A DNA stretch of 42,226 nucleotides from an uncultured Candidatus Saccharibacteria bacterium (GCA_964365465.1 CAYIPT010000003.1:1-42226); one strand, 5' to 3'. Positions 22,571 to 42,226 are shown, numbered from the stretch's first letter. Notes: generated by a model from the sequence alone, not told the origin. A program made the numbers and translations.

Positions 22571-25318
22571 ATGGAATTTCCTCTGCCAAAAACTCCTTTC
22601 AAAAACACGGAAGATGAGATAACTCATTTGCGCCGTTTAATTGCCGAAAAGGAAAGAGCGCTGGAAAATATAGGCCTTAAAAAAGAATCTCTAGCGCCAA
22701 CCAGAGAAACTTTGGCGGAATATAAAACAGTGCCGGCCGGCGCGACTCTTCATCCGGAATATGAAATAAAAAAAGAAGAATTAGAAAAAATAGTCCTTAA
22801 ACTTTTTCCCGAAGAACATGATAAGCAAATCTCGGAGCTGGTTTTGCTGGCCAAAGAAAAAGGCATAAAAAATGCCCTTTCAGTGGTTGAAAAAATGGCA
22901 AATTTTCATATTACGGATGATTTTCACAGATTTATGGCCGAATATTTAAAAGAAGGATTCACCATACCGGGGCTGAATGTAAAAGAAAAAATTTCAAAGG
23001 GGCTCAATATGGCTTTGTATGAAATTTTAATACAGGAGGAAAGTGAAAAAGATAATATTAAAAATACTTTGGAAGAGGTGATTTCGGGCATGGAGCAATT
23101 TTATGCCGGTATGCTTTCCATTGCCGATTCGGATAAGCGCGAAGAAAGCTGGATGTCTTTGGAAATTGCCAATGCCAATTTTTCCCAAGAAATAGTTTTT
23201 TACGCAGCCGTGCCGAGCGCCCGCAAAAATCTTTTTGAAAAGCAAATTTTATCAATTTTTCATAACGCCAAAATTGCAGAAAAACCGGATGATTATAATA
23301 TTTTCAACGAAACCGGTCACACTGCCGGCGTCCGCGCCTCTTTTACAAAAAACCCCATTTATCCCCTGAAGACCTATGAAAGTTTTATGCACGATCCTCT
23401 CAATGTCATTCTTTCTTCATTTTCAAAAGTGAATAGAGACGGCGAAGGAGCCGCCATCCAGCTTATTTGGTCGCCGGCAGGAGAAAAATATGTCAAAAGA
23501 TACAAGAGCGCTTTGGATAAAATCCAAAAGGGCGCGCCTCTCAAAGAGGCCATAGACATACCCGATAGCATATCGGGAGAAGTTCTGCATACTTTCAAAG
23601 ATCTTTTCTCGTCTTCCAAAAAGAAAGACGAAAAGGGGGAAGAGAAAAAATCGGAACCCATTGATCAGGGAGCGGTAGAAGAAATAAAAAATAAAATCTC
23701 GGCGCCCATAGTATTATGCAATTTGCGTTTGCTGGCATCATCCGGCACCAAAGAGGAAGCGGAAGAAATATTAAGTTCCCTTAAATCAAGCTTCAATCAG
23801 TTTGATAACACTCTAGGCAACGCCTTAGAGTGGAAAAAAGAAGAAAAGGGGGGATTGAGAAATTTGGTCAGAAATTTCAGTTTCCGCATTTTTGACAATA
23901 ATAACGCTTTGCCAATGAATTTGAGAGAAGTCACTTCCATTATGCATTTTCACACCAAAGCGCTCTCTGCTTCCGAGGGTTTGCGTCAATCAAGGTCGGC
24001 AACCGCGCCAGCGCCTCTTGATATTGCCAAAGAAGGAATTTTGCTTGGCGTAAACAACCACAAAAATATAAATACAGAAATAAGAATGTCGGAAGACGGC
24101 GATCGCCTCAGACATTTTTATTGCATAGGCCAGACTGGCACCGGTAAAACCTCTTTGATTAGAGAAATGATAATTCAAGATATGAAAATGGGTCATGGAG
24201 TTTGTATGATTGACCCGCATGGCTCCGACCTTCAGCAGGTAATGGCCAATGTGCCGCCAGAGCGCTTTGACGATGTCATTTATTTTGATCCAGCTTACAC
24301 GGCGCGGCCTATGGCTCTCAATATGCTTGAATATGACGAAAATTTTCCGGAACAAAAGACATTTGTGGTTAATGAGCTTTTCAGCATTTTCAGAAAACTT
24401 TATGGCGCTATACCGGAATCAATGGGTCCCGCTTTTGAGCAATATTTCAGAAACTCGGCTCTTCTGGTGATGGATGATCCGACCTCGGGCAACACTTTGG
24501 TTGATATGTCTCGGGTTCTTTCAAATAAGCCATACAGAGACCTTAAAATATCAAAATGCAAAAATCCTCTGGTTAAGCAGTTTTGGGTCAATGCCGAAAA
24601 AACCACGGGCGAACAGGGTTTGGCCAATTATGTCCAATATGTAACCAATAAATTTGATGTCTTCCTGGCCAACGATATTATGCGGCCGGTTATTGCCCAG
24701 GAAAAATCATCCTTCAATTTTCGCGACATTATGGATAACAAAAAAATACTTTTGGTTAATCTTTCCAAGGGGCGGCTGGGAGATATAAACGCCAATCTTA
24801 TCGGTTTGGTTTTGGTTGGCAAAATTCTTATCGCCGCTCTTTCGCGCACCGATTCCTTCGGCAAGGACTTTCCGCCTTTTTATTTATACATAGATGAATT
24901 TCACAATATAACCACCGATTCCATTTCCACCATTCTTTCCGAAGCAAGAAAATATAAACTTTCTCTTATAATTGCCCATCAATTTATTGCCCAACTGGAA
25001 GAGGGGATTAAAAATTCGGTTTTTGGCAATGTCGGTTCAATTTGCGCTTTTAGAGTGGGCGCCGAGGACTCCGAAGTTTTGGAAAGTCAATTTGCTCCCG
25101 TTTTTTCCGCCAGTGATTTGATGAATATAGACAATCTTAACGCTTATTTGCGGCTTATGGTAAATGGCAAACCGGCAAAACCTTTTAATATAAAAATACC
25201 TCCATGGTCGCAAGGGAACAGCGAACAAGTAGAAAAACTGAAAGAGATGTCTTATATAAAATACGGCAAACCCCGCGAGGAAGTTGAAAAACTTATTTTG
25301 GAGAAATATAAAATATAA
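22571..25318 (+). CDS. TrwB/TraD/HerA-FtsK superfamily P-loop ATPase (coupling-protein-like)
   Basis: GQTGTGKT, IDPHG, LYIDEFHN, SEARKY.LSLIIAHQ, FGNVGS..AFRVG.ED. Confidence 0.85.
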   Translation: MEFPLPKTPFKNTEDEITHLRRLIAEKERALENIGLKKESLAPTRETLAEYKTVPAGATLHPEYEIKKEELEKIVLKLFPEEHDKQISELVLLAKEKGIKNALSVVEKMANFHITDDFHRFMAEYLKEGFTIPGLNVKEKISKGLNMALYEILIQEESEKDNIKNTLEEVISGMEQFYAGMLSIADSDKREESWMSLEIANANFSQEIVFYAAVPSARKNLFEKQILSIFHNAKIAEKPDDYNIFNETGHTAGVRASFTKNPIYPLKTYESFMHDPLNVILSSFSKVNRDGEGAAIQLIWSPAGEKYVKRYKSALDKIQKGAPLKEAIDIPDSISGEVLHTFKDLFSSSKKKDEKGEEKKSEPIDQGAVEEIKNKISAPIVLCNLRLLASSGTKEEAEEILSSLKSSFNQFDNTLGNALEWKKEEKGGLRNLVRNFSFRIFDNNNALPMNLREVTSIMHFHTKALSASEGLRQSRSATAPAPLDIAKEGILLGVNNHKNINTEIRMSEDGDRLRHFYCIGQTGTGKTSLIREMIIQDMKMGHGVCMIDPHGSDLQQVMANVPPERFDDVIYFDPAYTARPMALNMLEYDENFPEQKTFVVNELFSIFRKLYGAIPESMGPAFEQYFRNSALLVMDDPTSGNTLVDMSRVLSNKPYRDLKISKCKNPLVKQFWVNAEKTTGEQGLANYVQYVTNKFDVFLANDIMRPVIAQEKSSFNFRDIMDNKKILLVNLSKGRLGDINANLIGLVLVGKILIAALSRTDSFGKDFPPFYLYIDEFHNITTDSISTILSEARKYKLSLIIAHQFIAQLEEGIKNSVFGNVGSICAFRVGAEDSEVLESQFAPVFSASDLMNIDNLNAYLRLMVNGKPAKPFNIKIPPWSQGNSEQVEKLKEMSYIKYGKPREEVEKLILEKYKI

Positions 25319-25329
25319 AAAACGCCCGG

Positions 25330-25569
25330 CTAGCGAACGATGCTAGCCGGGGTAGAGCGATGAATATTGGGCAGAACAAGCTGATTGGGGTGCTTTTCTC
25401 TCCGCGCCCTCAAGATGCTCCCCACTCCGATCCTGACTTGGTGAAATAGTTCAGGGTCAAAATCTGACTTGCGGAACGCTATGCCGAATGCATTCCCAAA
25501 GCCAACCCCTGTTCTCACCAGCTCAGCAACGGAATTAGACAAAGAGAATAACTCTTTTTCGTAATCCAT
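25330..25569 (-). CDS. Hypothetical 79-aa protein
   Basis: ATG 11 nt downstream of a consensus -10 box; fills the intergenic gap; ends in the hairpin CCCGGCTAGC/GCTAGCCGGG. Confidence 0.55.
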   Translation of the reverse strand: MDYEKELFSLSNSVAELVRTGVGFGNAFGIAFRKSDFDPELFHQVRIGVGSILRARREKHPNQLVLPNIHRSTPASIVR

Positions 25570-25580
25570 ATCTACTTTCT

Positions 25581-25608
25581 ATTATACCATATCAACATTT
25601 TCTGTCAA
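25581..25608 (-). promoter_or_regulatory. Consensus sigma70 promoter with extended -10
   Basis: Minus strand TTGACA-N16-TATAAT with TGn before the -10; DnaA-type box TGTGGATAA at 25616-25624. Confidence 0.7.
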
Positions 25609-25760
25609 ATAGAAATGTGGATAACTCGCTACTAAACGCTGAGCGTCTAGTATAAAATAAAGACAGGTTTTATTATTAATAATCCCGATTTCCGTTTAGG
25701 AAATCGAGGATCCACGATAAATATAAAAAATTATTATTTATCGGGATTAATCTTAACATT

Positions 25761-26012
25761 ATGGATTGGCAAAGTTTTGTTACTCCCGCAGATCCTCCGT
25801 TTTTTGCGGGAGCTGTGGGATTGGTGTTGGCGGTTGTGATTTTGTGGTCGTTGGTTTGGAAGGGTATGGCCCTTTGGAAAGCGGCCCAAAAAAGAAGCAA
25901 AGTTTGGTTTGTTGTTTTGCTTCTTGTCAATACTGTCGGCATTCTGGATATTCTGTATTTGTATGTATTTAGCAAGAAATCCGGCCAATCGGTTGAAGGG
26001 CCGAGAATGTAA
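25761..26012 (+). CDS. DUF5652-like small membrane protein
   Basis: WSLVWKGMALWKAA....K.WFVVLLLVNTVGIL.ILY. Confidence 0.85.
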   Translation: MDWQSFVTPADPPFFAGAVGLVLAVVILWSLVWKGMALWKAAQKRSKVWFVVLLLVNTVGILDILYLYVFSKKSGQSVEGPRM

Positions 26013-26045
26013 ATAAAAAATTGCCCCGCGCGAGCGGGGCAATTC

Positions 26046-26119
26046 GGGCCTGTAGCTCAGCTGGCTAGAGCGCTGCTATGGCATAGCAGAGGTCGCCCGT
26101 TCGAACCGGGTCAGGTCCA
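26046..26119 (+). tRNA. tRNA-Ala(GGC); probable integration site
   Basis: Acceptor GGGCCTG/CAGGTCC with G3.U70; anticodon arm CTGCT-ATGGCAT-AGCAG (A32-U38); T arm GCCCG-TTCGAAC-CGGGT. Confidence 0.95.
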
Positions 26120-27692
26120 CATCGTCGGAATTAGAGACAGCAAACTGCTCAAATAACCTTGTGTAGCTTTGTATTTTATCGGTTCGATAACCTTCTTTTT
26201 GGTCATACCACAATTTTTCCTCAAAGATAAAGAAAAACATCTTATGTTTTTCAACCAAAGGCAATTTTTTCCAAACAACATATGGACTTTTTAGAAAATT
26301 GGTAGATTTATCCAATGCAGTTCGATAAGGGATTGAATAGTCAGTTTTTCCAATAAGCTGATCGTCCAATATTTCTATTTTGTTTAAGATTTCTTTCAGT
26401 TGGCCTTTATATGCCCGAGTTAACTGATCATCAGTTGAATTAACGATAAGATCTGTGAGCCTCTTTGTTTTTTCTTCAAGAAGGGCTTTCTCTTGTTTTT
26501 TCTCCATATCTCTCTCTACAAACGCAGATATTTCTTGCTTCCATGTTCGGTCAAAAACCAGTTTAACCACATCGCCCACGTTTTTCTTGAGCTTTTGTTG
26601 TTTTATGATTGTATCAAGCTTTTTTTCTACATCGTCTCCAAACAATGATTTTCTGTACATCTTGCAGTCCCTATTCTGACAAAAGTAGTATGGGCGCTTG
26701 TACAATCCTTTGTTTTTCGTTGTTGTGGCCCCCGTAAGATGTTTACCACAACAGGCACACACGATTAAACCTCTGGCCGGAAATTCATCTGTGATATCCT
26801 TCCTTATCCTTTTACCCGTCAATTCATTGTTTAATCTTTTTTGATTTAACTCGAAAGTTTCAGCTGAGATTATAGCTTCGTGGTGGCCTTTTCTACGAGA
26901 TACTTCCCAAGGCAGATATTCAATGTCACCCATATAGAAGGGGTCTTTTAGCATGCTGGTAAATTCATCCGTATACTTTTCGGGATATTTTCCTTTCCAA
27001 AATCCTTTTTCCATAAGATATCTACATCCGTCAACCCTTCTTATAAAATTACCAGTGGAAAAACTTTCCAAGGCGTGCCTGATAATCGGGGCCTCTTTTT
27101 TGTTGGGAACAGCCAGAGTTCCGCATTTAGGATCTTTCACCATTTCATATCCTCTTTTGGCTACGAAAGCCCAATACCCTAACTCTAGGCGGGCTTTTGT
27201 TTTTTGAATAACTTGCCTTCTGTTTTGATGTCTTTCCAGTTCAGCTTGCGCCGCCATGATAGTCTCTACAAATCGTCCCTCATCGCTTTCATCAAATTGG
27301 AAATTTAAACATTTCAAAACCACATCCCTTGCTTTAAATACCGCTCTAAGTTTTAGATGAAATTCGGTATCTCTAGCAAATCTTTTTAGATCGTCGAATA
27401 TAACCAAGAACTTTTTATGGGGATTTGCGTCTATATAGGCGAGCATCTCTCTCATTGCCGGTCTTTTCATAAAGTCACCACCCCCGGAGTAGCTGTCTCT
27501 GAAAGATCGTTTGTAAGTTACTTGAATAGAATTGAGTTCCTTGACGCATCTCCCTTCCTGGGTTTGCAATCCAGTGCCGTCAATTTCCTGTCTTTTACTC
27601 GATACGCGGGCGTATACTAAACCCTCCATACCTTCATAAGGATTTTCTATCTTAGACTTCTGGGTTATTTGGCTGTTTGCTTTGAACGACAT
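26076..27692 (-). CDS. Large serine recombinase (resolvase, recombinase, Zn-ribbon and coiled-coil domains)
   Basis: YARVSS..Q catalytic motif, SGG....RP, DDLKRFAR, HEAIIS.ETF, CACC...YYFC....C. Confidence 0.93.
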   Translation of the reverse strand: MSFKANSQITQKSKIENPYEGMEGLVYARVSSKRQEIDGTGLQTQEGRCVKELNSIQVTYKRSFRDSYSGGGDFMKRPAMREMLAYIDANPHKKFLVIFDDLKRFARDTEFHLKLRAVFKARDVVLKCLNFQFDESDEGRFVETIMAAQAELERHQNRRQVIQKTKARLELGYWAFVAKRGYEMVKDPKCGTLAVPNKKEAPIIRHALESFSTGNFIRRVDGCRYLMEKGFWKGKYPEKYTDEFTSMLKDPFYMGDIEYLPWEVSRRKGHHEAIISAETFELNQKRLNNELTGKRIRKDITDEFPARGLIVCACCGKHLTGATTTKNKGLYKRPYYFCQNRDCKMYRKSLFGDDVEKKLDTIIKQQKLKKNVGDVVKLVFDRTWKQEISAFVERDMEKKQEKALLEEKTKRLTDLIVNSTDDQLTRAYKGQLKEILNKIEILDDQLIGKTDYSIPYRTALDKSTNFLKSPYVVWKKLPLVEKHKMFFFIFEEKLWYDQKEGYRTDKIQSYTRLFEQFAVSNSDDVDLTRFERATSAMP

Positions 27693-27822
27693 AATTTTCC
27701 AACTCGATTTTTATTATATTCCTACAAAACGCTTCCAGATATTCAATTCGTTTTTTGATTTGGTCATCAGAACTACTGAAATCATTGAGTATTTTGCGAT
27801 ACTCATCAATGGTAACAACCAT
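27652..27822 (-). CDS. Unannotated 56-aa protein immediately upstream of the recombinase
   Basis: Manual translation MVVTIDEYRKILNDFSSSDDQIKKRIEYLEAFCRNIIKIELENYVVQSKQPNNPEV*; overlaps the recombinase start. Confidence 0.65.
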   Translation of the reverse strand: MVVTIDEYRKILNDFSSSDDQIKKRIEYLEAFCRNIIKIELENYVVQSKQPNNPEV

Positions 27823-27904
27823 CTGATTCTATTGTTGCGACTTTGTTTCAGTTTTTCCTGATAACTCATGTTAGTTCTCTTAATGCTTCGGTTTTTCCCG
27901 ATAG

Positions 27905-28723
27905 CTAATTTGTTAAACGCTTATTTTTTGTAACCTTTACTGATTTACGCTTTCCTGCCACATAATTGACCTCTATTTTCCCATAGGCACCATCTCTCTC
28001 CATTTCTGCTTGGATTTGATAATTCGGCCGAGGAATCGTTTCTGTTTTTGATGTTTCGATTTCAGAAATTTTGCTTTTCTTTGCCTTTATTATCACCTCA
28101 TCTCCTTGCCTTATAGTTTTTATCCCCTCGGATTCAGCATCGGTTAGCCATTCAAGAGGTTTGGGAGGTGCTACACTAGCTCCCAATTCGTCCAAGATTG
28201 ATTTAATGGAAATCAGCAGAAAATCATTATTTTTACGATGCAACATTTTTGCTTGCCCGATCTCTTCATTGCTTGCAATACCAGCAACTCCATTGACAAG
28301 GGCAACTATATACGGATCGTCTGTGGTGAACCAAGCTCTGTAAATATAATATTCAAGATCGGGATAAGCATTTAATTTCTTATCCCAGTCAATGAGAGAT
28401 TTTTTTGCACGAGCGATTTTATCCAATGAAAACCCATACTCCCTAAAATGTTGTATGACTTTTAACCAGACCATTTCAACCAATGAAAATTTGCGCCAAC
28501 CGGCACCATCTTTGAGTCCCTGGGGAAGTAACCCGGCTTTATCCCAGTGATTAATAACTCTGTAACTTATGTTTGATGTTCCTACTGTGTATGAACGCAT
28601 GTTTAATATAATCCTATTGTTAAAATTTTCTTTAGAAAAATATTTCGGGAAAGTGGCGAGATACACTTCACCTTTGGGTAAAAAATATTTATCTGTCTCC
28701 AACCACCCCACCTTTCTCTTCAT
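27905..28723 (-). CDS. MerR-family HTH regulator-like protein
   Basis: ISYRVINHWDKAGLLP......WRKFS..EMVWLKVI..FR.YGFSL.KI. Confidence 0.75.
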   Translation of the reverse strand: MKRKVGWLETDKYFLPKGEVYLATFPKYFSKENFNNRIILNMRSYTVGTSNISYRVINHWDKAGLLPQGLKDGAGWRKFSLVEMVWLKVIQHFREYGFSLDKIARAKKSLIDWDKKLNAYPDLEYYIYRAWFTTDDPYIVALVNGVAGIASNEEIGQAKMLHRKNNDFLLISIKSILDELGASVAPPKPLEWLTDAESEGIKTIRQGDEVIIKAKKSKISEIETSKTETIPRPNYQIQAEMERDGAYGKIEVNYVAGKRKSVKVTKNKRLTN

Positions 28724-32746: not shown

Positions 32747-33485
32747 TTTTTTGTTTGCTTTTCTCTGCCATGTTACCAAGCTCACCAGTAACAACCTTTG
32801 GTGGTGATATAGACATTTCTTTGTGCTCCGGGATGTAACTTGCAGGGACAGCATATCCTATACCAAGCTGAAAATTATTGATAAGAACTTTATATACTTC
32901 CACTAAATCCATCCCGTGTAAAGAAATGGCCCCGAATGGCATTTCTAACACTTTTTGCATTTTGTCTGCTTGTACAGCACCCTTGGCATTTACCACCCCA
33001 ATTACATTTCCATCTTTATCCATGAGGGGGCATCCGCTGTTGCCGGAGTTTACGGTGCCGTCAATAAGGTATACATTCTTTCCTGTAGGATCCTTTGTGA
33101 CAGAAGAGATGATACCCTGATGTGTCGTTAAATCCTGTAAATTTATTGGATAACCGGCAAAAATAACTGGCATACCTTCCCTAACACTATCTTGATCCGC
33201 AAGCTCCAAAGGTGCCCTCGTGTTATCTTCGAATCCTAGCAGAGCAAGGTCATGTTCTTCGTCTTTCAATAAAATTTTTGCTGGTATTGGAATCTCGACA
33301 CCGGAGAACTTGAGAAAGATTGAACTTGCTGTCTTTACCACATGATTACAAGTTACAAGAATGTTTTTCTTCCAAAAAATGAAACCGCTTCCGGTGCTAT
33401 CGGGTGTCCCTTTTTCATTGTAAGTAATGACAAGAGCAACACTCGGCTTTATCTTTAATATGGTTGTAGAGTGATCTTGCATCAT
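32727..33485 (-). CDS. Trypsin-like serine protease, no signal peptide
   Basis: GSGF, TCNHVV, DLALL, GNSGCP triad motifs. Start placed at ATG 33485. Confidence 0.9.
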   Translation of the reverse strand: MMQDHSTTILKIKPSVALVITYNEKGTPDSTGSGFIFWKKNILVTCNHVVKTASSIFLKFSGVEIPIPAKILLKDEEHDLALLGFEDNTRAPLELADQDSVREGMPVIFAGYPINLQDLTTHQGIISSVTKDPTGKNVYLIDGTVNSGNSGCPLMDKDGNVIGVVNAKGAVQADKMQKVLEMPFGAISLHGMDLVEVYKVLINNFQLGIGYAVPASYIPEHKEMSISPPKVVTGELGNMAEKSKQKNGKDTK

Positions 33486-33949: not shown

Positions 33950-34261
33950 TTAAGTCGAGACGGTATTTTTGACCGATTTGTTTCTTTTCTTCTTCGGCCA
34001 ATTAGGACAGAATTTGATCAAGAACTTGATGGTTGACTCGCTACTGCTGTGAACCCAGAAACGCTCAAAGCACTTCGGGCATTCATAGATCACAGCTGAC
34101 GGGTTTGTACTAAGACTGAAACCGACAACTTGCTTTACCACCTCATCACTTGCTCCCAATGCGCTCCACCCTTCACAATTTCCGTTTTCACAACAGAAGC
34201 CTTCAGAGTGTGGGATTCCGTATATTTCAGCTCCCCACGATCTTACTTTGAGTTCAGGCAT
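33950..34261 (-). CDS. Cys/His-rich small protein, paralogue 3
   Basis: MPELKVRSWG..IPHS..CCE...C..YECPKCFERFWVH..CPNWP; AAGGAG RBS upstream. Confidence 0.75.
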   Translation of the reverse strand: MPELKVRSWGAEIYGIPHSEGFCCENGNCEGWSALGASDEVVKQVVGFSLSTNPSAVIYECPKCFERFWVHSSSESTIKFLIKFCPNWPKKKRNKSVKNTVST

Positions 34262-34530
34262 TTTGTGCTCTCCTTTTTTGGAAAGTTTGGACACCATCTT
34301 TGAGCATATTCGAGAAACGATTCTCTGCTCAAATGAACCCAAAACAGACTGAAGCACTCTGGACACCGAAAGATGAGTTTGTCATCTCGTATACCTACGA
34401 GATCTTTCCATGCATCGTGCGTCAAAACAAGTCTGAAAGAACAATTTTCAGACTCGCAACACCACCCGTTTGAGTGCGGTATTGATTCATCAAAGAACAC
34501 GCCCCAAGACCTTGGATTTAGCTTTGACAC
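34243..34530 (-). CDS. Cys/His-rich small protein, paralogue 2 (GTG start)
   Basis: VSKLNPRSWG..IPHS..WCCE...C..FRCPECFSLFWVH..CPNFP. Confidence 0.75.
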   Translation of the reverse strand: MSKLNPRSWGVFFDESIPHSNGWCCESENCSFRLVLTHDAWKDLVGIRDDKLIFRCPECFSLFWVHLSRESFLEYAQRWCPNFPKKESTKCLNSK

Positions 34531-34820
34531 GGTGCAGTATCCTTTCTTGGCCAATTCTTGGAAACCATCATGTCCTCGACATTCATGTCGTGAACATGGA
34601 ACCAAAATTTCTCAAAACACCTCGGGCATTCAACGATCATCTTGCCCGCAATTGACTGGTCACGTTTAACAATGGGTTCGTGAGCAAATCCAACCATATG
34701 GTCATAAAGTCTCATACCAAGAGTTGGACGCCAATAACATTCTGGATTTTTGCATTCCCATCTAGCTGAATACGGGATTGCTTCAGTCCAGACCACACCC
34801 CAAGACTTGAGTTCTGACAT
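34518..34820 (-). CDS. Cys/His-rich small protein, paralogue 1
   Basis: MSELKSWG..IPYS..WEC....C..VECPRCFEKFWFH..NWP; GGAGG RBS upstream. Confidence 0.75.
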   Translation of the reverse strand: MSELKSWGVVWTEAIPYSARWECKNPECYWRPTLGMRLYDHMVGFAHEPIVKRDQSIAGKMIVECPRCFEKFWFHVHDMNVEDMMVSKNWPRKDTAPCQS

Positions 34821-36266: not shown

Positions 36267-38171
36267 CTACTCTCCCGCCAACATCCAATTATTGGAAAGG
36301 TAGGCAAAATCAAGAGAATTTACCAAGCCGTCCCTATTAACGTCAGCTAGGGTATCACTGGCGCCCCATTTGCCGTTCATATAGGAAAAGTCCAGGGAAT
36401 TAATCAGTTGGTCGCTGTTGAAATCGCCGGCCGGTAAAGTCGGGAAATTGACATCAAGAACCGAAATGTTCCTCAAATCAACGCCTCCAAGCAATTTAGA
36501 CAAATAACCGGAAACCACTGGCCGGAGAGTGACTGTCGGCAAAAGCCCTGCCGGCACATCTATCGTGTATTGCCCGGAAGTATTCGTGGTAAAGCTTGCC
36601 TGATATATCTTTGAACTGAGATTTGACGGGTTAAGAAATTCAACTGTTCCTGACACATTTCTCTGGCTGGCAGGCGTTCCCTCCGGAACCAAGATTATTC
36701 TTCTTTGGACTAAAAGGGAAAGCATCGGCGTAGTGGCGCTCACTGATGCCGACCTTGCCGAAACATTGCCCGCGACATCAACGGCGGCTACCTGATAGCT
36801 GTATGTAGCGCCGGCAGTCAGTCCCGTATCCAAATAGGCGGTGCTGGCCGTGGTGCCCAAAGAGACACCCCCGCGGAATATTTGGTAATCGGACACTCCA
36901 GACACTGCCTGTCCCGCACCGGTTGGATCTGTGGAAGCGGTCCATGAAATTTGGATTTGGTTTTCACTGGTAGCCGTAGCTGTGACCCCGGCGGGTACCG
37001 TCGGAGAAGTGGTATCCGGCAAAGTTTGAGTGGTCAATGAGTTGTCAAATGAGAGGGCCAGGTTTCCTGCCGCATCGCGGGATCTTATCATGTAATGATA
37101 AACGGTGCCGGCCGAAAGACCCGAAAGAGTCGCCGAGTGAGAAGTGGCTAAAGAGGAATTGAGCGCGGTTGAAGCGCCGTAAGAAGCGGTAAGCCCATAA
37201 TCAACCTGGGTATCGCCCGGTTCGTTGGTGGTCCATGTAATGGTGGCGCCAGAGACGGTGACTCCGGAGACGGCAATGGCGGAAATGGTGGGAGGCGTAA
37301 TGTCCGGCGGGGCTTGAGTGGTGGCACTCGCCGCCGATGAATAAGCGGATAAATTGCCGGCGGCGTCTGTCGCTCTGATTCTGTACCTATAAATGGTGCT
37401 CGCGGAGAGGCCTGTGTCAGAATATGAATTGACGGCGGGAGTGGCGACTTGAGAATAAGTGGTGCAGGTGGCGGACCCCGAACACCTTTCAACTCTGTAT
37501 CCGGTTACCGCCACATTATCAGTGGAGGCAGTCCAGGAAAGATTTATTTGGGAAGAGGACATAACATTCAAAGAAGGGGTGCCCGGAGCGGTGGGGGCGG
37601 TGATGTCAGGAAGGGAAGTAACAGTATAAGAGCCGCTTCCCGCGGAAGCCAGCAAATCCCCGCCCAGTCCGGCAACATTTGTGTCGGTGCTGTTGCCTAG
37701 AGAGAAATCAAAAGCGGTATTTGAAATCCCAACAGCCAAAGCGCGGAAAGTGATAACGGCCAGAGTGCCTGAACCGTTATAAGTGGAGCCGGGATTAGCC
37801 AGCTGAGAAAATTGGATTGAACCGCCCGTGTTGTCCGCCAAGTTTATTATAGTCAAAGGCATAAGAGCTCCCGCCGCAATCTGCGTTCCTGCTGACGCTC
37901 CATCGGCATCCACCACCTGCAAAACACTCGGATTAAAGTGAAGATGGTTAATATCAACTCCATAAGCTCCCTGCCCTCCGGTGTTAACGGCGATATTTAC
38001 AGTAAAAGTGTTATTGACTGAGGCGGAATAGGAAGACGGCGAAAGAGAAACAGATGCGGTCGGCGACACTTGGGCCAGCTGGGTGCCGGCTGGCATCCCC
38101 GCCAAAGTCGCCTGCAATGTGAGCAATATGGCGGTAAGGATGGATACGATTTGTTGCAATGTTTGAATCAT
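36267..38171 (-). CDS. Secreted cohesin - three Fn3-like domains - Ig-like - dockerin protein
   Basis: Cohesin paralogous to the neighbour; three D.T.P...W...L...T.Y.Y...D.AGN repeats; C-terminal GDFNSDQLINSLD / DVNRDGLVNSLD pair. Confidence 0.85.
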   Translation of the reverse strand: MIQTLQQIVSILTAILLTLQATLAGMPAGTQLAQVSPTASVSLSPSSYSASVNNTFTVNIAVNTGGQGAYGVDINHLHFNPSVLQVVDADGASAGTQIAAGALMPLTIINLADNTGGSIQFSQLANPGSTYNGSGTLAVITFRALAVGISNTAFDFSLGNSTDTNVAGLGGDLLASAGSGSYTVTSLPDITAPTAPGTPSLNVMSSSQINLSWTASTDNVAVTGYRVERCSGSATCTTYSQVATPAVNSYSDTGLSASTIYRYRIRATDAAGNLSAYSSAASATTQAPPDITPPTISAIAVSGVTVSGATITWTTNEPGDTQVDYGLTASYGASTALNSSLATSHSATLSGLSAGTVYHYMIRSRDAAGNLALSFDNSLTTQTLPDTTSPTVPAGVTATATSENQIQISWTASTDPTGAGQAVSGVSDYQIFRGGVSLGTTASTAYLDTGLTAGATYSYQVAAVDVAGNVSARSASVSATTPMLSLLVQRRIILVPEGTPASQRNVSGTVEFLNPSNLSSKIYQASFTTNTSGQYTIDVPAGLLPTVTLRPVVSGYLSKLLGGVDLRNISVLDVNFPTLPAGDFNSDQLINSLDFSYMNGKWGASDTLADVNRDGLVNSLDFAYLSNNWMLAGE

Positions 38172-38204: not shown

Positions 38205-38942
38205 CTATGGCGTCCAATTTTGAACCATAATGACGTAGTCAAGGGAGTTGACGATGGTGTCGTGGTTCAGGTCGTAAATGGCATTGTTTTGGTTCCAGGC
38301 CGTAATCATGAGAGATAAGTCAATTGAGTTAACGAGGCCGTCATTGTTGAAGTCGCCTATGATGGGGACGGAATATAAAGCGAGATAGTTCTCCACGCTC
38401 CAGCCGTCGGCGCCCGAATCATAATTCACATTCCACCAGAAGTATCCGTCGGCACTTGTTCCTCCACTGACAATAGTTCCAAGAGAGCCGAGAGATTGAG
38501 TTCCTAATAATGCGCCGGTGGCAGAAGCGGCCGCCCTAACATTGAGGTTTGATGTTGTTTGCACGCGCTGGCCAGCGAAAAACTTGATGGAGGGGGGAAT
38601 GGAGGGAGAGATTGCCTTGCTCACCTGGGGCGAGAAAACACTTTCATTATTTGAAGTGTCGTAGGCGCTGACGGAAAAATAATATGTCAGGCCGTCTGTC
38701 AAATTATTAAAAGTATAAGTCCTGACATTGCCGGCATTCACAGTATTTGAATATCCGCAAAGTCCGCAAATCTTTGGGTCAGTGCCGGTCCTTTGACCGG
38801 TGCCGTAATATATCTTGTATCCCGAAAGGTCCGGCTCAGTATTAGCGTTCCAAGTCACCGTGGCCGAACCGGCCAAAGCGGTGTTTGCATAAAAAGCGAA
38901 AAACAATACCGCCAGTAAAACCAAAACAAATTTATTTTTCAT
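38205..38942 (-). CDS. Secreted Fn3 - SH3-like - dockerin protein
   Basis: Signal peptide; WNANTEPDLSGYKIYYG..TYYFSVSAYDTSNNES; LNVR..GY.WW.V.Y..G..GW; GDFNNDGLVNSID / DLNHDTIVNSLD. Start placed at ATG 38942. Confidence 0.85.
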   Translation of the reverse strand: MKNKFVLVLLAVLFFAFYANTALAGSATVTWNANTEPDLSGYKIYYGTGQRTGTDPKICGLCGYSNTVNAGNVRTYTFNNLTDGLTYYFSVSAYDTSNNESVFSPQVSKAISPSIPPSIKFFAGQRVQTTSNLNVRAAASATGALLGTQSLGSLGTIVSGGTSADGYFWWNVNYDSGADGWSVENYLALYSVPIIGDFNNDGLVNSIDLSLMITAWNQNNAIYDLNHDTIVNSLDYVIMVQNWTP

Positions 38943-39028
38943 ATTATTTGCCATTAATATTAACGCCATTAATTATATATTAAGGAAAATTGGTTGGCTA
39001 GCGCTCCTGTGGATGCAGAAACCTGATT

Positions 39029-39093
39029 CTACGTCCCGCCGACATATTCACCCCGCACCACTTTTGTTGGTGCTGGGGTTCATACGCTCCGAC
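39029..39093 (-). pseudogene. Orphan gene-tail copy D (VGAYE[hairpin]YVGGT*)
   Basis: Shares CCCGCCGACATATTCA and CATACGC with 41040-41060; interrupted by a 28-nt hairpin. Confidence 0.65.
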
Positions 39094-39095
39094 TT

Positions 39096-39148
39096 GCCCT
39101 GTGAAATTCCGCGAAGCGGATACGAGCAAAACTCGTATTTCACAGGGC
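39096..39148. repeat. Branched (Y-shaped) REP-like palindrome
   Basis: GCCCTGTGAAAT...ATTTCACAGGGC enclosing TCCGC-GAA-GCGGA and TACGAG-CAAAA-CTCGTA. Confidence 0.7.
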
Positions 39149-39162
39149 TTTATCGCATTTTC

Positions 39163-39486
39163 TCAGACCTTTACACCGTAAGTTTTGATTTCATTGATTA
39201 AACTGGAATATTTACTGCTGAAATCTGCAGGATTAAAGCCGATAGGTTCAATAACCCACCCTCTGCCGTATGGCAACTTACTATACAAGTAATCCAAAGC
39301 AGACCATGGGCTTTTGAAATGAGGTGAAATAACCGCCACATCAATATCACTGTCCTCTCTGGCGTTTCCTTTGGCATATGAGCCAAACACATATACACCA
39401 ACAATCGGAAAATTATCAGCCTGCAGAAGCTTCTTATATTCTGTGACTTCAGATATTATTTTTTGAGGCAACTTTCTTTTAGCCAT
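39163..39486 (-). CDS. Minimal nucleotidyltransferase (MNT, antitoxin-like)
   Basis: YVFGSYAKG.AREDSDIDVAVIS. Confidence 0.9.
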   Translation of the reverse strand: MAKRKLPQKIISEVTEYKKLLQADNFPIVGVYVFGSYAKGNAREDSDIDVAVISPHFKSPWSALDYLYSKLPYGRGWVIEPIGFNPADFSSKYSSLINEIKTYGVKV

Positions 39487-39660
39487 GATATTAATTTTTC
39501 TGTGATGTTAAGATATTTTTGAGCGTATTCTTTTGTGGCCAGTTTGCGAAATTCCCATTTTTCATCTGAATTCTTTGTCATCAAAAAGTTTCTTCGCCAC
39601 CCTCAAATCCTCATCGGATGACTCTTTATAATACGCTATGGTTTTTTCAAATTCCGACAT
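39456..39660 (-). pseudogene. Internally deleted HEPN-domain gene
   Basis: N-terminal MSEFEKTIAYYKESSDEDLRVAKKLFDDKE joined out of frame to C-terminal DEKWEFRKLATKEYAQKYLNITEKLISWLKE; overlaps the MNT start. Confidence 0.75.
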
Positions 39661-39775
39661 GATGTGATTATATCATATCCCCAAATAAAAAATCAAATTA
39701 GTAAATGATAAACAAAACAACAAAACTTTACAGAAAGATAGTGTCAAAGGCGACCTTTGACATGTTTTGACAGGG

Positions 39776-39906
39776 TTAATTAACGGTGACGCCGGAAGGG
39801 GCGGAGGTCCCGTCTCCGATCTTTGATCGGGACGAGGATCCTCGATTTTGTAACTCCGACTTCTTCGGAGACAAAATCGGGAGAGGAGTGGTGTCGGGCG
39901 TTCCCC
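39776..39906 (-). pseudogene. Orphan gene-tail copy C (GTPDTTP[hairpins]SAPSGVTVN*)
   Basis: Aligns with 42156-42210 once the ~75-nt palindromic insert (about 39808-39882) is removed. Confidence 0.7.
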
Positions 39907-39960
39907 ATTTATCCCGTCCCGCTTAGCGGGACTGGAAATTGTCCCACAGCGGGCCACTCC

Positions 39961-40956
39961 CTACTTCTTTTTCTTCTTTGCTCCCAGCAGCTTTTTCACC
40001 TCGCGGTCAAAGTCGGAAATGTAATCATGGTCCTGAATAACGCGGTATTTGTCATATTCTTTGAGCGCCAGGGCTTCGGCCACTTCGTGGCTGACTTTGC
40101 CGGCATTGCTTAAAATACCCTTTCCCAAAAGAGCCATGTATTCATCAAGCTTCTTAATCCAGTCCTTCATTGTCATTGCCAATTCGCTTTTGGCCTGGAC
40201 TTCGGCAAATGACAGGTATGCGTCAACAATACGATTAAGCATTTGGAGCTCCTTTTCATTCAAATAGTTTTTCGCTATGTAAATATCGCGCTGAATTGGA
40301 TTCAAGCCAGAAAAATTGGTCAGCCCCATTAGCGGCTTTTTACTATCGGCGCGTTCGGTTATAATTTCCGCCGCGGTCTTGCCGGATACCGCGTAATGCA
40401 TCTTATTTTGAACTGTTTTAAAAAACTTCTCGGTCTCTTTGGCATCCTTGCGATAGTCAACACTTGTAGCGTAAATATCGGTTACTTTTTGGTACAGCAT
40501 CCTTTCACTGGAGCGAATATCGCGAATACGCTCCAATAATTCTTCAAAATAACGCGATTTATATCCGCCCTGTTTAAGACGGATATCGTCCATGGTAAAA
40601 CCCTTGACCACATATTCCTTCAGACGGTCAGTCGCCCATTGGCGAAAAAGCGTGCCACGCTCGGAATTTACCCTATAGCCCACGGCGATAATCGCCTCCA
40701 ACCCGTACATCTTAGTATGGTACTCTTTCCCGTCCGCGGCAGTTATTAAGAATTCCTTAATAACTGAATCCTGCCTAAGCTCCCCTGTCTTAAATATGCT
40801 TTTAAGATGCATGTTAATATTGGGAACAGTTGTCCCAAACAGCTCTGCCATGAGCTTTTGCGTCAGCCACACATTTTCATGCTCAAAACGAACCTCTACC
40901 CGGGTTTTTCCGTCTTCCGTGGTGTAAATGATGATTTGTGATTTTTCTTTGGCCAT
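39961..40956 (-). CDS. RhuM/virulence-family DNA-binding protein
   Basis: VWLTQKLMAELF, IIAVGYRVNS, FRQWAT, KGFTMDD.RLK, IRDIRSSER, VQNKMHYA, AKNYL. Confidence 0.9.
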   Translation of the reverse strand: MAKEKSQIIIYTTEDGKTRVEVRFEHENVWLTQKLMAELFGTTVPNINMHLKSIFKTGELRQDSVIKEFLITAADGKEYHTKMYGLEAIIAVGYRVNSERGTLFRQWATDRLKEYVVKGFTMDDIRLKQGGYKSRYFEELLERIRDIRSSERMLYQKVTDIYATSVDYRKDAKETEKFFKTVQNKMHYAVSGKTAAEIITERADSKKPLMGLTNFSGLNPIQRDIYIAKNYLNEKELQMLNRIVDAYLSFAEVQAKSELAMTMKDWIKKLDEYMALLGKGILSNAGKVSHEVAEALALKEYDKYRVIQDHDYISDFDREVKKLLGAKKKKK

Positions 40957-40985
40957 TTTTAAATAATCAAGGATGAAGGATAATT

Positions 40986-41069
40986 TTAATTCACCGATAC
41001 TCCGCTGGGCGCCGCGGGCGGAGTAGTGTCGGGACTTCCCCCGCCGACATATTCATACGCGCCGATGTC
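40986..41069 (-). pseudogene. Orphan gene-tail copy B (DIGAYEYVGGGSPDTTPPAAPSGVSVN*)
   Basis: Intact 27-codon tail with no start codon, 20 nt after the previous stop; 31 nt identical to the window end. Confidence 0.8.
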
Positions 41070-41089
41070 CTTTGTTGGTTTCGAGTTTC

Positions 41090-42064
41090 TTAAACCTCGC
41101 TTATAACCTCAAATCCTTTAAAACTGCCGGTAATAGCCAAGCCAATAATTTGCTCCGCCAAATTTCTCTCTTTTATCTTTCTTGCCGTTTCATTGAGCGT
41201 AGCTCCAGAACCGAGCGCATCGTCTATTAGTAAAACGGTTTTAAATTTTCTGGCATCTTGCATAACTATGGTCCTGCTGGCATTTTCTATTCTGTCCTCA
41301 AGTTTAACCAGTGTTTTCTGCGGCACGGCTACTGGCGTTTTTATTTTAACAAGGTCAATCACCGGAAGAGGCAGCCGGAGCTGCTTTTCCAACTCTTTCA
41401 TAAGCTGGACCTCCCGCTTGACCGTCGGCGGTATAAATCCTACCGCGTTTACTTCAAACTTTTCTGCCAAAAAATTTATTTTGGGCTTGATTTCTTCAAC
41501 CAATTCTTTCATCAGATTTTTGTTCTGGCTTTGCTTGGCGTAAAGAAGCAGTTGGCCGAGTTTTGTTTTACCGAATCGTTCAATGCTGTAGAAATCCAGA
41601 TAAAACACTTTATCCAGAAAGACTTCATCAAAAGTGTGTTTTATTTTATACATGCCATCTACCAGCCCGTCTTTTTTATACATTGAATATTTCTTCAAGG
41701 TTTGGATATATTCTGTGGCTGTTTTTTCAACCGGCAATTTTTGCTTCTGGCACCAATAGGCAAATCCCCCCACTCCCTCTTGCCTTTCGCCGGAAGGAGT
41801 AATTACAAGAAAATTACCGCCGATTATTTTTTTCAAATTATCGCCAATTAGAAACGTCCCCGCCTCTTTAATTTTTTTCGGAGAAACAGAGTAAAAAACC
41901 TTTGGCGGTTTGCCGGCCTTATATATGATTTTTTCTTTAAGCAGCTTGTTAATCTGCCTGTGCACGGCCTGCCGACTGATGCCTAGATAATCAGAAAGTT
42001 CCCCAGCCGCGGCTTCTGGTCTGGTTTTTAGGTATTCAATTATTCTGTCACCCGTCTTTTTCAT
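41090..42064 (-). CDS. Winged-HTH plus phosphoribosyltransferase-fold protein
   Basis: ELSDYLGISRQAVHRQI HTH; VLLIDDALGSGATL PRPP-binding loop. Confidence 0.85.
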   Translation of the reverse strand: MKKTGDRIIEYLKTRPEAAAGELSDYLGISRQAVHRQINKLLKEKIIYKAGKPPKVFYSVSPKKIKEAGTFLIGDNLKKIIGGNFLVITPSGERQEGVGGFAYWCQKQKLPVEKTATEYIQTLKKYSMYKKDGLVDGMYKIKHTFDEVFLDKVFYLDFYSIERFGKTKLGQLLLYAKQSQNKNLMKELVEEIKPKINFLAEKFEVNAVGFIPPTVKREVQLMKELEKQLRLPLPVIDLVKIKTPVAVPQKTLVKLEDRIENASRTIVMQDARKFKTVLLIDDALGSGATLNETARKIKERNLAEQIIGLAITGSFKGFEVISEV

Positions 42065-42155
42065 GTTATAAATGTAGCATAATCTTAAAAAGTTTACAAT
42101 ACACTGTAAACTGTAAACTTAGTGATAAAAAAGAAAAGATTAATGATGAAGAATA

Positions 42156-42226
42156 TTAATTCACGGTGATACCGGAGGGGGCGGAGGGAGAAGTGGTGTC
42201 GGGACTTCCCCCGCCGACATATTCAT
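42156..42226 (-). CDS. 3' end of a probable secreted-protein gene entering from outside the window (tail copy A)
   Basis: Translates to (Y)EYVGGGSPDTTSPSAPSGITVN*. Cannot tell whether the upstream part is intact. Confidence 0.6.
   Translation of the reverse strand, partial: EYVGGGSPDTTSPSAPSGITVN

Follow-up and report, generated by a model that had tools for sequence, protein, structure and literature searches.

How does the end of one gene come to be repeated four times, with single cargo loci between the copies? The question is raised by the last 3.3 kb of a 42,226-nucleotide (nt) stretch of DNA from an uncultured Candidatus Saccharibacteria bacterium (GCA_964365465.1 CAYIPT010000003.1:1-42226). 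This stretch, hereafter the window, is the entire contig C3 of the genome of a tiny groundwater bacterium (G000; 649 kb, 43 contigs, 96% complete). Read on the minus strand, the region runs from tail A through a gene for a helix-turn-helix (HTH) protein fused to a phosphoribosyltransferase (PRTase), tail B, a RhuM gene, tail C, a HEPN remnant with an MNT-type nucleotidyltransferase gene, and tail D to scaffold genes, the tails being copies of one gene 3′ end. A preliminary description had recognized these four copies, and all of them are on the minus strand at the places it gave. Comparisons drew on a genome of the same genus (G029), a genome of another genus in the same family (G002), six groundwater metagenome loci that hold a 27-nt tail core (L014-L019; 1.7-4 kb each) and run data (X1, X2) in the form of Logan contigs at k=31, for which depth is one figure per contig; tails were searched with nhmmer, using a profile built from the intact copies. 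The reading that we favor, to which we give a probability of about 0.45, is that the array grew by homology-driven, gene-proximal accretion and shuffling of self-promoted defense or toxin-antitoxin (TA) cassettes, a process that would leave 5′-truncated gene ends behind.

Anatomy of the array and coding origin of its tails

All tails, cargo genes and flanking genes of the window described below lie on its minus strand. Tail A (42134..42226; nhmmer E 6.8e-24) has an intact frame with the stop TAA at 42156-42158 and may be the gene's own end; the contig end cuts it upstream, precisely at the first base of its 31-nt identity with tail B, and no other G000 contig end continues it. Tail B (40960..41073; nhmmer E 1.9e-30), which starts 17 nt beyond the PRTase stop, is an orphan that encodes DIGAYEYVGGGSPDTTPPAAPSGVSVN up to a stop at 40986-40988 and has no start codon. 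Its relationship to tail A, described earlier as 31 identical nt plus likeness beyond the stop, was borne out in the alignment of 42226-42156 with 41056-40986 (80% identity over 84 nt, an alignment that extends about 20 nt beyond the stop codon). Tail C (39768..39906; fold z -3.8) is a left-truncated orphan that begins near GGGGAACGCCCGACACC, ends GTTAATTAA and is split by two nested hairpin inserts (about 39806-39884); its last 32 nt (39807-39776) are 87.5% identical to tail A, and the segment 39906-39878 is 79% identical. In the orphan tail D (39035..39093), a 28-nt hairpin (39051-39078) accompanied by a TGAA duplication separates QVGAYE from TGAATATGTCGGCGGG; the tail is truncated on the right side and retains 16 identical nt (39050-39035) plus GCGTATGAA. 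The 16-mer TGAATATGTCGGCGGG occurs 3 times in the window and 0 times across 100 shuffles. Disruption rises from tail A to tail D and the third cargo is likewise broken, in agreement with the decay away from the window end noted at the outset. The absence of start codons, claimed for tails B to D, held for B; tails C and D lie inside mechanical TTG-start open reading frames (ORFs) of 32 and 43 amino acids (aa), whose starts fall within the hairpin inserts.

At the level of sequence, the tail is the native C-terminus (DIGAYEYVGGGSPDTTPP..SGVSVN, then the stop) of beta-helix "choice-of-anchor Q" surface proteins. Long open frames in L016 and L019 (238 and 292 aa, cut at the locus ends) close with ...DIGAYEYV(S/G)GGSPDTTPPS.P..V.V(N/Q) at the same stop position, and the NCBIfam model choice_anch_Q covers their DIGAYEY part with 30.7 and 28.8 bits (cut-off 25). 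The G029 genome has one full 573-aa gene that ends DIGADEYVAGGG... at the nucleotide-homologous place. Behind it come a single gene remnant and then ORFs with N-termini that resemble, by eye, those of genes on the G000 contigs C21 and C5. With full-length genes in L016, L019 and G029, the proposal that the tails were copied from the conserved 3′ end of a surface-protein gene gained support. In G002, a linker and then a dockerin come after the DIGAYEY motif. The full owner gene is not assembled in G000, and the G029 owner protein found nothing there by tblastn at E 1e-3.

The differences between the two intact tails also speak of a coding past. All 13 fall within nt 31-61 of 71; at four codons the change is purely synonymous (TCC/AGC for Ser among them), and four are conservative replacements. 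The pair is a mosaic, identical in the left part and diverged in the right, with third positions changed in 1/10 versus 6/12 cases, a marginal difference (Fisher p 0.07). We rejected a diversity-generating retroelement, as the 13 differences span all base types and are not confined to adenine; no reverse-transcriptase domain was found in 20 proteins scanned from 20-42 kb, and no genome-wide search for one was made.

Cargo 1 (41090..42064) is an intact gene of 324 aa for a winged-helix HTH domain fused to a PRTase (Pribosyltran 2.2e-7, HTH_11 2.8e-7), with PADLOC matches to PsyrT (6e-15), ShosT (2.2e-6) and a retron III-A PRTase (4.5e-6). Cargo 2 (39961..40956) encodes an intact RhuM-family protein of 331 aa (Virulence_RhuM 4.4e-105; PDC-S05 8.8e-138). 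Cargo 3 is a pair of unequal state: the HEPN gene (39456..39660) is a remnant in two ORF pieces (39562-39660 and 39456-39584) without about 195 nt found in the intact 132-aa G002 homologue, and its MNT partner (39163..39486; 107 aa; NTP_transf_2 1.1e-11; PDC-S09 4.3e-11) is intact. Judged by such family matches, every cargo unit is from a family common in defense islands or TA loci. Promoter-like sites stand ahead of the PRTase gene (TTTACA-17-TAAGAT, 42082..42110, minus strand; 9 of 12 positions) and of the HEPN gene; a scan counted 9 such sites versus 7.1 in shuffles, so that they are not enriched. Clear sites of the TTGACA-17-TATAAT type were read from the sequence ahead of cargo in L014, L016 and L019.

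The HEPN/MNT DNA itself (window 39161-39675 against G002:C1:20951-21660) is 77-82% identical between the two genera, and the orthologous dockerin gene region beside it is just about 71% identical. The lesser likeness of the neighboring gene region hints that the cargo was exchanged more recently.

Recurrence in the same genome, in relatives and in metagenomes

A genome-wide count of the tail, one of the checks proposed at the outset, returned 8 copies or fragments in G000: A to D in the window and two each on contigs C21 and C5. On C21, a PDC-S13 (DinD-like) gene is followed by tail E, a Gp49/HTH_3 toxin-antitoxin pair and then the right-half tail E2. On C5, tail F is the end of a 157-aa beta-helix gene remnant (...RGAYEYISGAPPPSDTTPPSAPSGVSVQ, then the stop), after which come an MNT/HepT pair, tail F2 and a DUF6922 gene. 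Over 58 nt, tail E has 96.6% identity to tail D, and the 28-nt hairpin of D recurs in it at the same site. Sequences of about 50 nt are common to pairs of contig ends and then diverge (C5:1-50 with the C35 end; L018:1-51 with the C43 end); because these assembly branch points adjoin tail-bearing loci, they suggest alternative arrangements in the population.

The layout of tail, cargo and tail recurs in four of the six metagenome loci with the 27-nt core (L014, L016, L017 and L019), where some cargo labels (L014, L017, L019) were read from sequence and not from family scans. Locus L016 runs from a gene with its tail through a Fic gene, a hairpin tail, a second Fic gene and a second hairpin tail; L019 has a gene with its tail, a two-gene cargo that fell outside the Pfam scan and two tail fragments; and in L014 and L017, ORFs with P-loop motifs (likewise read by eye) alternate with tails. 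The two other loci are twins of known ones with the same arrangement, L018 of C21 (98.8% identity) and L015 of part of L019 (94.8%). The G002 genome has a counterpart built on another tail: its contig C1 carries 9 orphan dockerin tails (tblastn) among four to five full dockerin-bearing genes. Each of these orphans follows cargo, which we labeled by likeness to scanned homologues or by reading the sequence, without family scans, as RhuM, MNT/HEPN pairs, a HicAB-like pair, a Gp49-like/HTH pair, an ATPase-like gene and others. The same contig also has 2 orphan 5′ stubs (C1:32211-32309 and 33178-33243), copies of the N-terminal signal region of a surface protein that flank cargo upstream of a broken paralogue as a mirror image of the 3′ tails. 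Cargo is not invariant: what lies between the tails differs in relatives and in metagenome contigs.

In the G002 orphans of the dockerin class of gene892 (LKTW), nonsynonymous divergence (pN) was 0.03-0.21 versus a synonymous divergence (pS) of 0.47-1.19, crude values from at most 52 codons with synonymous sites saturated, and all 9 orphans are free of stops and frameshifts. Low pN against pS and open frames therefore mark the orphans as recent ex-functional ends from diverged sources and not as neutrally decaying local copies. Where the copies begin is not constant. Left ends of orphans fall at profile positions of about 2-6, 10, 35, 44 and 54, and tracts of identity between pairs of tails break off at differing places; such variable junctions therefore fit homologous or illegitimate joints and not a single crossover core. 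Seven of the 9 G002 orphans begin no more than 12 nt past the stop of the upstream cargo.

Orphans also appear in new company. The hairpin-marked allele of the tail is found in 5 places (D, E, two tails of L016 and, in diverged form, one of L014), with different neighbors on both sides each time, so that orphans evidently persist and change neighbors. The window, L016 and L019 share a polarity, gene-adjacent tails being intact and distal ones disrupted.

Hairpins of unique sequence (22-75 nt) lie in or beside orphan tails in the window (39051-39078, 39806-39884, 39096-39148 and 39912-39936) and in L016 and L017, where they are located in the upstream parts of the tails. The one at 39096..39148 (minus strand, between the MNT stop and tail D) is a nested hairpin of 53 nt with a fold z of -7.1. 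Target duplications at hairpins read TGAA or GCGTATGAA (D/E), TGGGACAT (L016) and GGGACA (L017). We considered hairpins as a repeated mobile element and rejected this, since, of the five tested, four were found at a single site in G000, one sharing 22 nt with contig C6; the hairpin of D and E is found solely in tails in that genome. One arm of the hairpin common to D and E looks like a reverse-complement copy of CCCGACACCACTT, a stretch of tail close by, a likeness that hints at template switching.

Directly after tail C is a terminator-like palindrome, TGTCAAAGGTCGCCTTTGACA with a T-run (39742..39762, minus strand), also present after tail E2 (C21:1405-1431) and after a G002 orphan tail (C1:33329-33359). 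The form TGTCAAAGG-N3-CCTTTGACA with its T-run is conserved after tails across two genera and could be a terminator or an operator.

The array borders on genes of a cohesin-dockerin type. Next to tail D is a gene for a 254-aa protein with a signal peptide, FN3 and dockerin (38205..38969), the C-terminal part of which is orthologous to the end of a 1073-aa G002 gene, followed by a 634-aa protein with a cohesin, three FN3 stretches and a dockerin (36267..38171); cohesin genes are thus near the array in the window. Dockerin domains were found in 141 of the 401 genomes sampled in the order, a count that takes in one unpublished genome (G285), and such a cohesin-dockerin system at the surface seems to be widespread across this group of ultra-small organisms. 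Further away, three tandem, partly overlapping ORFs (100-138 aa; window 33950-34820) code for a set of related Cys-rich proteins (SWG..IPHS..W.CE...CP.CF..FWVH) that match no Pfam family.

Possible routes of formation

The anatomy of the array, the coding origin of its tails, their recurrence in other genomes, the variable junctions and the occurrence of one allele in several contexts are directly established. Homology-driven accretion fits these observations best, because the tails are of coding origin, their junctions vary, one allele occurs in many contexts and no integrase is adjacent. Under this model, a fast-evolving beta-helix (choice-of-anchor Q) surface-protein gene would supply portable homology through its 3′ end, and small selfish units, each made up of a promoter of its own plus a single defense/TA gene or pair, would enter beside the gene by RecA-type recombination in the tail. 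The likely form would be a Campbell-type "insertion-duplication" of tail-plus-cargo DNA, the alternative a homology-anchored illegitimate joining after DNA uptake. Each event would strand the previous gene end as a 5′-truncated orphan tail and shift older units away from the gene, where they would decay through hairpin insertions, truncation and toxin loss, and recombination between tails could then shuffle, replace or delete cassettes. We infer the recombination pathway, the direction of growth and entry by DNA uptake. RecA is present in G000, and Patescibacteria, according to excerpts of PMC12455944, retain homologous-recombination genes and are naturally competent. For the serial insertion proposed earlier, which would leave an ordered cassette array, there is partial support, in that tails bound single cargo units and decay is polar. 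A bolder version, in which competent cells would run an integrase-free functional analogue of an integron, we consider doubtful. The gene-end tail (a linker in this lineage, a dockerin in G002) would be its portable recombination site and RecA and uptake its only machinery, by which self-promoted defense and TA cassettes would be gathered, stacked, reordered and lost, and it would have arisen at least twice with different tails.

Several observations weigh against accretion by homology. The run contigs contain no cargo-skipping joint or circle, though at k=31 they break at each tail and speak neither for nor against the assembled order; the three joints listed from them stem from diverged homologues and are located within the RhuM gene, and loose ends at 41065, 39092 and 42156 lead to tail-like sequence in other contexts, possibly from other populations. 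We found no strain pair that differs by one cassette, L015 and L019, like L018 and C21, sharing their arrangement. With tails of 50-110 nt and identity tracts of about 30 nt, the substrates would be short for RecA. Left ends are partly clustered, as suits a defined site: the left end of 5/9 G002 orphans coincides with the dockerin start, and that of several orphans of the window type with CCGACAC. The hairpin allele has 12-20 nt of tail on its left, yet the upstream neighbor differs in all 5 places. The arrangement is also rare. Dockerin matches in frames shorter than 150 aa came only from G002 (7 rows) among 39 genomes of the family; at the level of the order (401 genomes), 4 frames were that short among the 150 matches listed (84 more lay beyond the list), two of them at contig starts; and the window tail peptide had a strong match only in G000 among those 401. 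The 27-nt core had 0 matches in viral contigs. A search of a species-genome collection with a 20-nt degenerate core gave 35 loci in unrelated phyla, none of them true tails by the profile, and we discarded this pattern as too loose. Lastly, tyrosine recombinases (PF00589) had 0 matches in G000, which is weak evidence because relatives hold 1-2 and the contig in question may be missing.

A rival is a site-specific process, in which small integrative elements would target the gene 3′ end and carry a replacement end, and repeated integration would build the array, the integrase being lost or acting in trans, in the manner of remnants of cis-mobilizable elements (CIMEs) or tycheposons. We consider this unlikely. 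In its favor, the array has direct repeats that match the 3′ end of its target, as tandem integrative elements do, and both L016 and L019 retain that gene intact; the 31-nt identical core of A and B, the clustering of some left ends and the polar decay would suit it too, and excerpts of a tycheposon study describe successive integrations that leave partial-tRNA repeats and push older elements inwards (10.1101/2020.12.28.424599). The sole recombinase found in G000 is a large serine recombinase (538 aa, 26076-27692) 11 kb from tail D; it stands together with a VirD4/TraG-like ATPase (915 aa) and a MerR-like protein at 22571-28723, a segment that may be an integrated element. Serine recombinases, to our knowledge, normally leave no long direct repeats. 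The earlier statement that no integron integrase adjoins the array can be widened, as no recombinase was present in or beside any array inspected (the last 3.3 kb of the window, four metagenome loci of about 2-4 kb each and G002:C1 12-40.9 kb), nor was an integrase or a remnant of one among the ORFs of the window array, C21, C5, L014, L016, L017, L019 and that G002 segment. In G002 (2 PF00589 matches) and G029 (1 match), the tyrosine recombinases, probably Xer, are on contigs other than those of the array or owner gene, as are all three recombinases of G002. The ~1-kb cargo units, which have promoter-like sites of their own, hold no mobility gene, and instead of the fixed crossover core and constant repeat boundaries of tandem integrative elements we found varying left ends and break-points with some clustering. 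Nor did the tails resemble other known sites: they gave 0 Rfam matches at E up to 1, which speaks against an RNA element, and the intact tails lack an attC-like fold, with single-strand DNA z values of -0.7 and 0.0 (B) and -2.4 and -2.2 (A) and no shared whole-site hairpin, a judgment made from folding alone. We accordingly rejected an attC-like fold, and no IntI-type tyrosine recombinase with attI was found next to the array, a feature that integrase-less attC clusters lack by definition.

The deletion scars of a paralogue cluster, raised in the preliminary description as the alternative, have lost ground in our analysis and now seem a rather unlikely origin. On that account each gene of a tandem cluster had its own TA or defense gene, and the bodies were lost in genome streamlining with 3′ stubs left. 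The G002 contig does offer a continuum, from full paralogues through one that is split or frameshifted (334 + 521 aa) to a 76-aa stub and still shorter ones, together with orphans and the two orphan 5′ stubs; C5 has its 157-aa remnant, and former paralogues would also give low pN/pS. However, 3′ stubs outnumber 5′ stubs by 9 to 2 in G002 and 8 to 0 in G000; in 7/9 G002 cases the stub was kept although it lies within 12 nt of the upstream cargo stop. As none of the nine orphans has a stop or frameshift, many near-simultaneous recent deletions would be needed. The hairpin-marked allele in 5 contexts shows orphans copied or moved as orphans, and the corresponding locus of G029 has one gene and one cargo remnant, not a paralogue cluster. 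A reservoir of silent cassettes, with orphan tails as promoterless donors of gene conversion in the manner of pilS or vls and TA genes that merely stabilize the locus, is improbable. The orphans are 5′-truncated and promoterless, all 9 in G002 keep open frames and low pN/pS, and A and B form a mosaic; three of the four window tails are nonetheless unfit as donors of an intact end (C and D disrupted, A possibly the gene's own end), the variable part is just about 12 codons of a Pro/Ser-rich linker, and no expressed recipient is assembled in G000. We regard a chimeric contig, joined at short repeats common to several metagenome populations, as very improbable. The contig does end exactly at a repeat, the run contigs break at every tail, and depth spikes there indicate tails common to other populations; the cargo segments and flanking genes, however, have even depth (X1 6.4-7.9, X2 7.0-9.8; a weak measure, being contig depths), the same layout is found in the independent contigs L014, L016, L017 and L019 and in another genus, and L018 reproduces the C21 arrangement at 98.8%. 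Homology-driven accretion thus remains the reading that we prefer.

Relation to known cassette systems and implications

Such tail arrays have no description in the literature searched, including PMC12455944 and PMC13385816 (supplements aside), yet they share traits with several known systems. Under the favored model, the process would be akin to the origin and recombination of orphan rhs-CT modules, and its outcome akin to tandem accretion at tRNA genes and to integron arrays. Orphan rhs-CT/rhsI and cdiA-CT/cdiI modules are start-less 3′ fragments downstream of the main gene that recombine with it and are thought to have been displaced by incoming ends, as excerpts of PMC3967940 describe. The tails are like them in being 5′-truncated ends of a surface or secreted gene, in the same orientation and interleaved with small genes. 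A main gene is present in L016, L019 and G002, and the window ends inside tail A. The rhs/cdi fragment, however, is the variable toxin domain and the interleaved gene its immunity partner, whereas a tail codes for 15-27 aa of conserved linker or, in G002, for a dockerin. The fragment here is thus a conserved, non-toxic end, and the cargo consists of autonomous defense/TA units with promoter-like sites, unrelated to the surface protein.

Tycheposons offer a second parallel, in that partial 3′-end copies separate cargo and newer units lie by the intact target with older ones degraded, going by excerpts of their description (10.1101/2020.12.28.424599). Unlike in tycheposons, the target here is a gene for a protein and not for a tRNA, neither an integrase nor a fragment of one lies in or beside the arrays, and the boundaries of the repeats are not constant. 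Chromosomal integrons resemble the array in their one-gene cassettes in one orientation, the related repeats of ~60-130 nt right after the ORF stop and the TA-rich content. The repeats here differ in being coding-derived and not attC-structured; there is no IntI, and the cassettes appear to carry promoters. Integrase-less clusters of attC sites are known as CALINs. Silent pilS and vls cassettes are promoterless, 5′-truncated copies of the 3′ part of a surface gene near the expressed gene; here, in contrast, single unrelated genes separate the copies, and most copies in the window are disrupted. Cassette shuffling in integrons has been linked to natural transformation (PMC12614218 and PMC13108822).

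Ultra-small groundwater bacteria have few classical mobile elements, yet their genes are exchanged. If the accretion model is true, gene ends used as recombination handles would explain how the defense/TA repertoire is renewed in very small genomes, and a recombinase-free route would join the known ways of building cassette arrays. The model would also account for the contig breaks and stray 3′ gene fragments in assemblies of such organisms.

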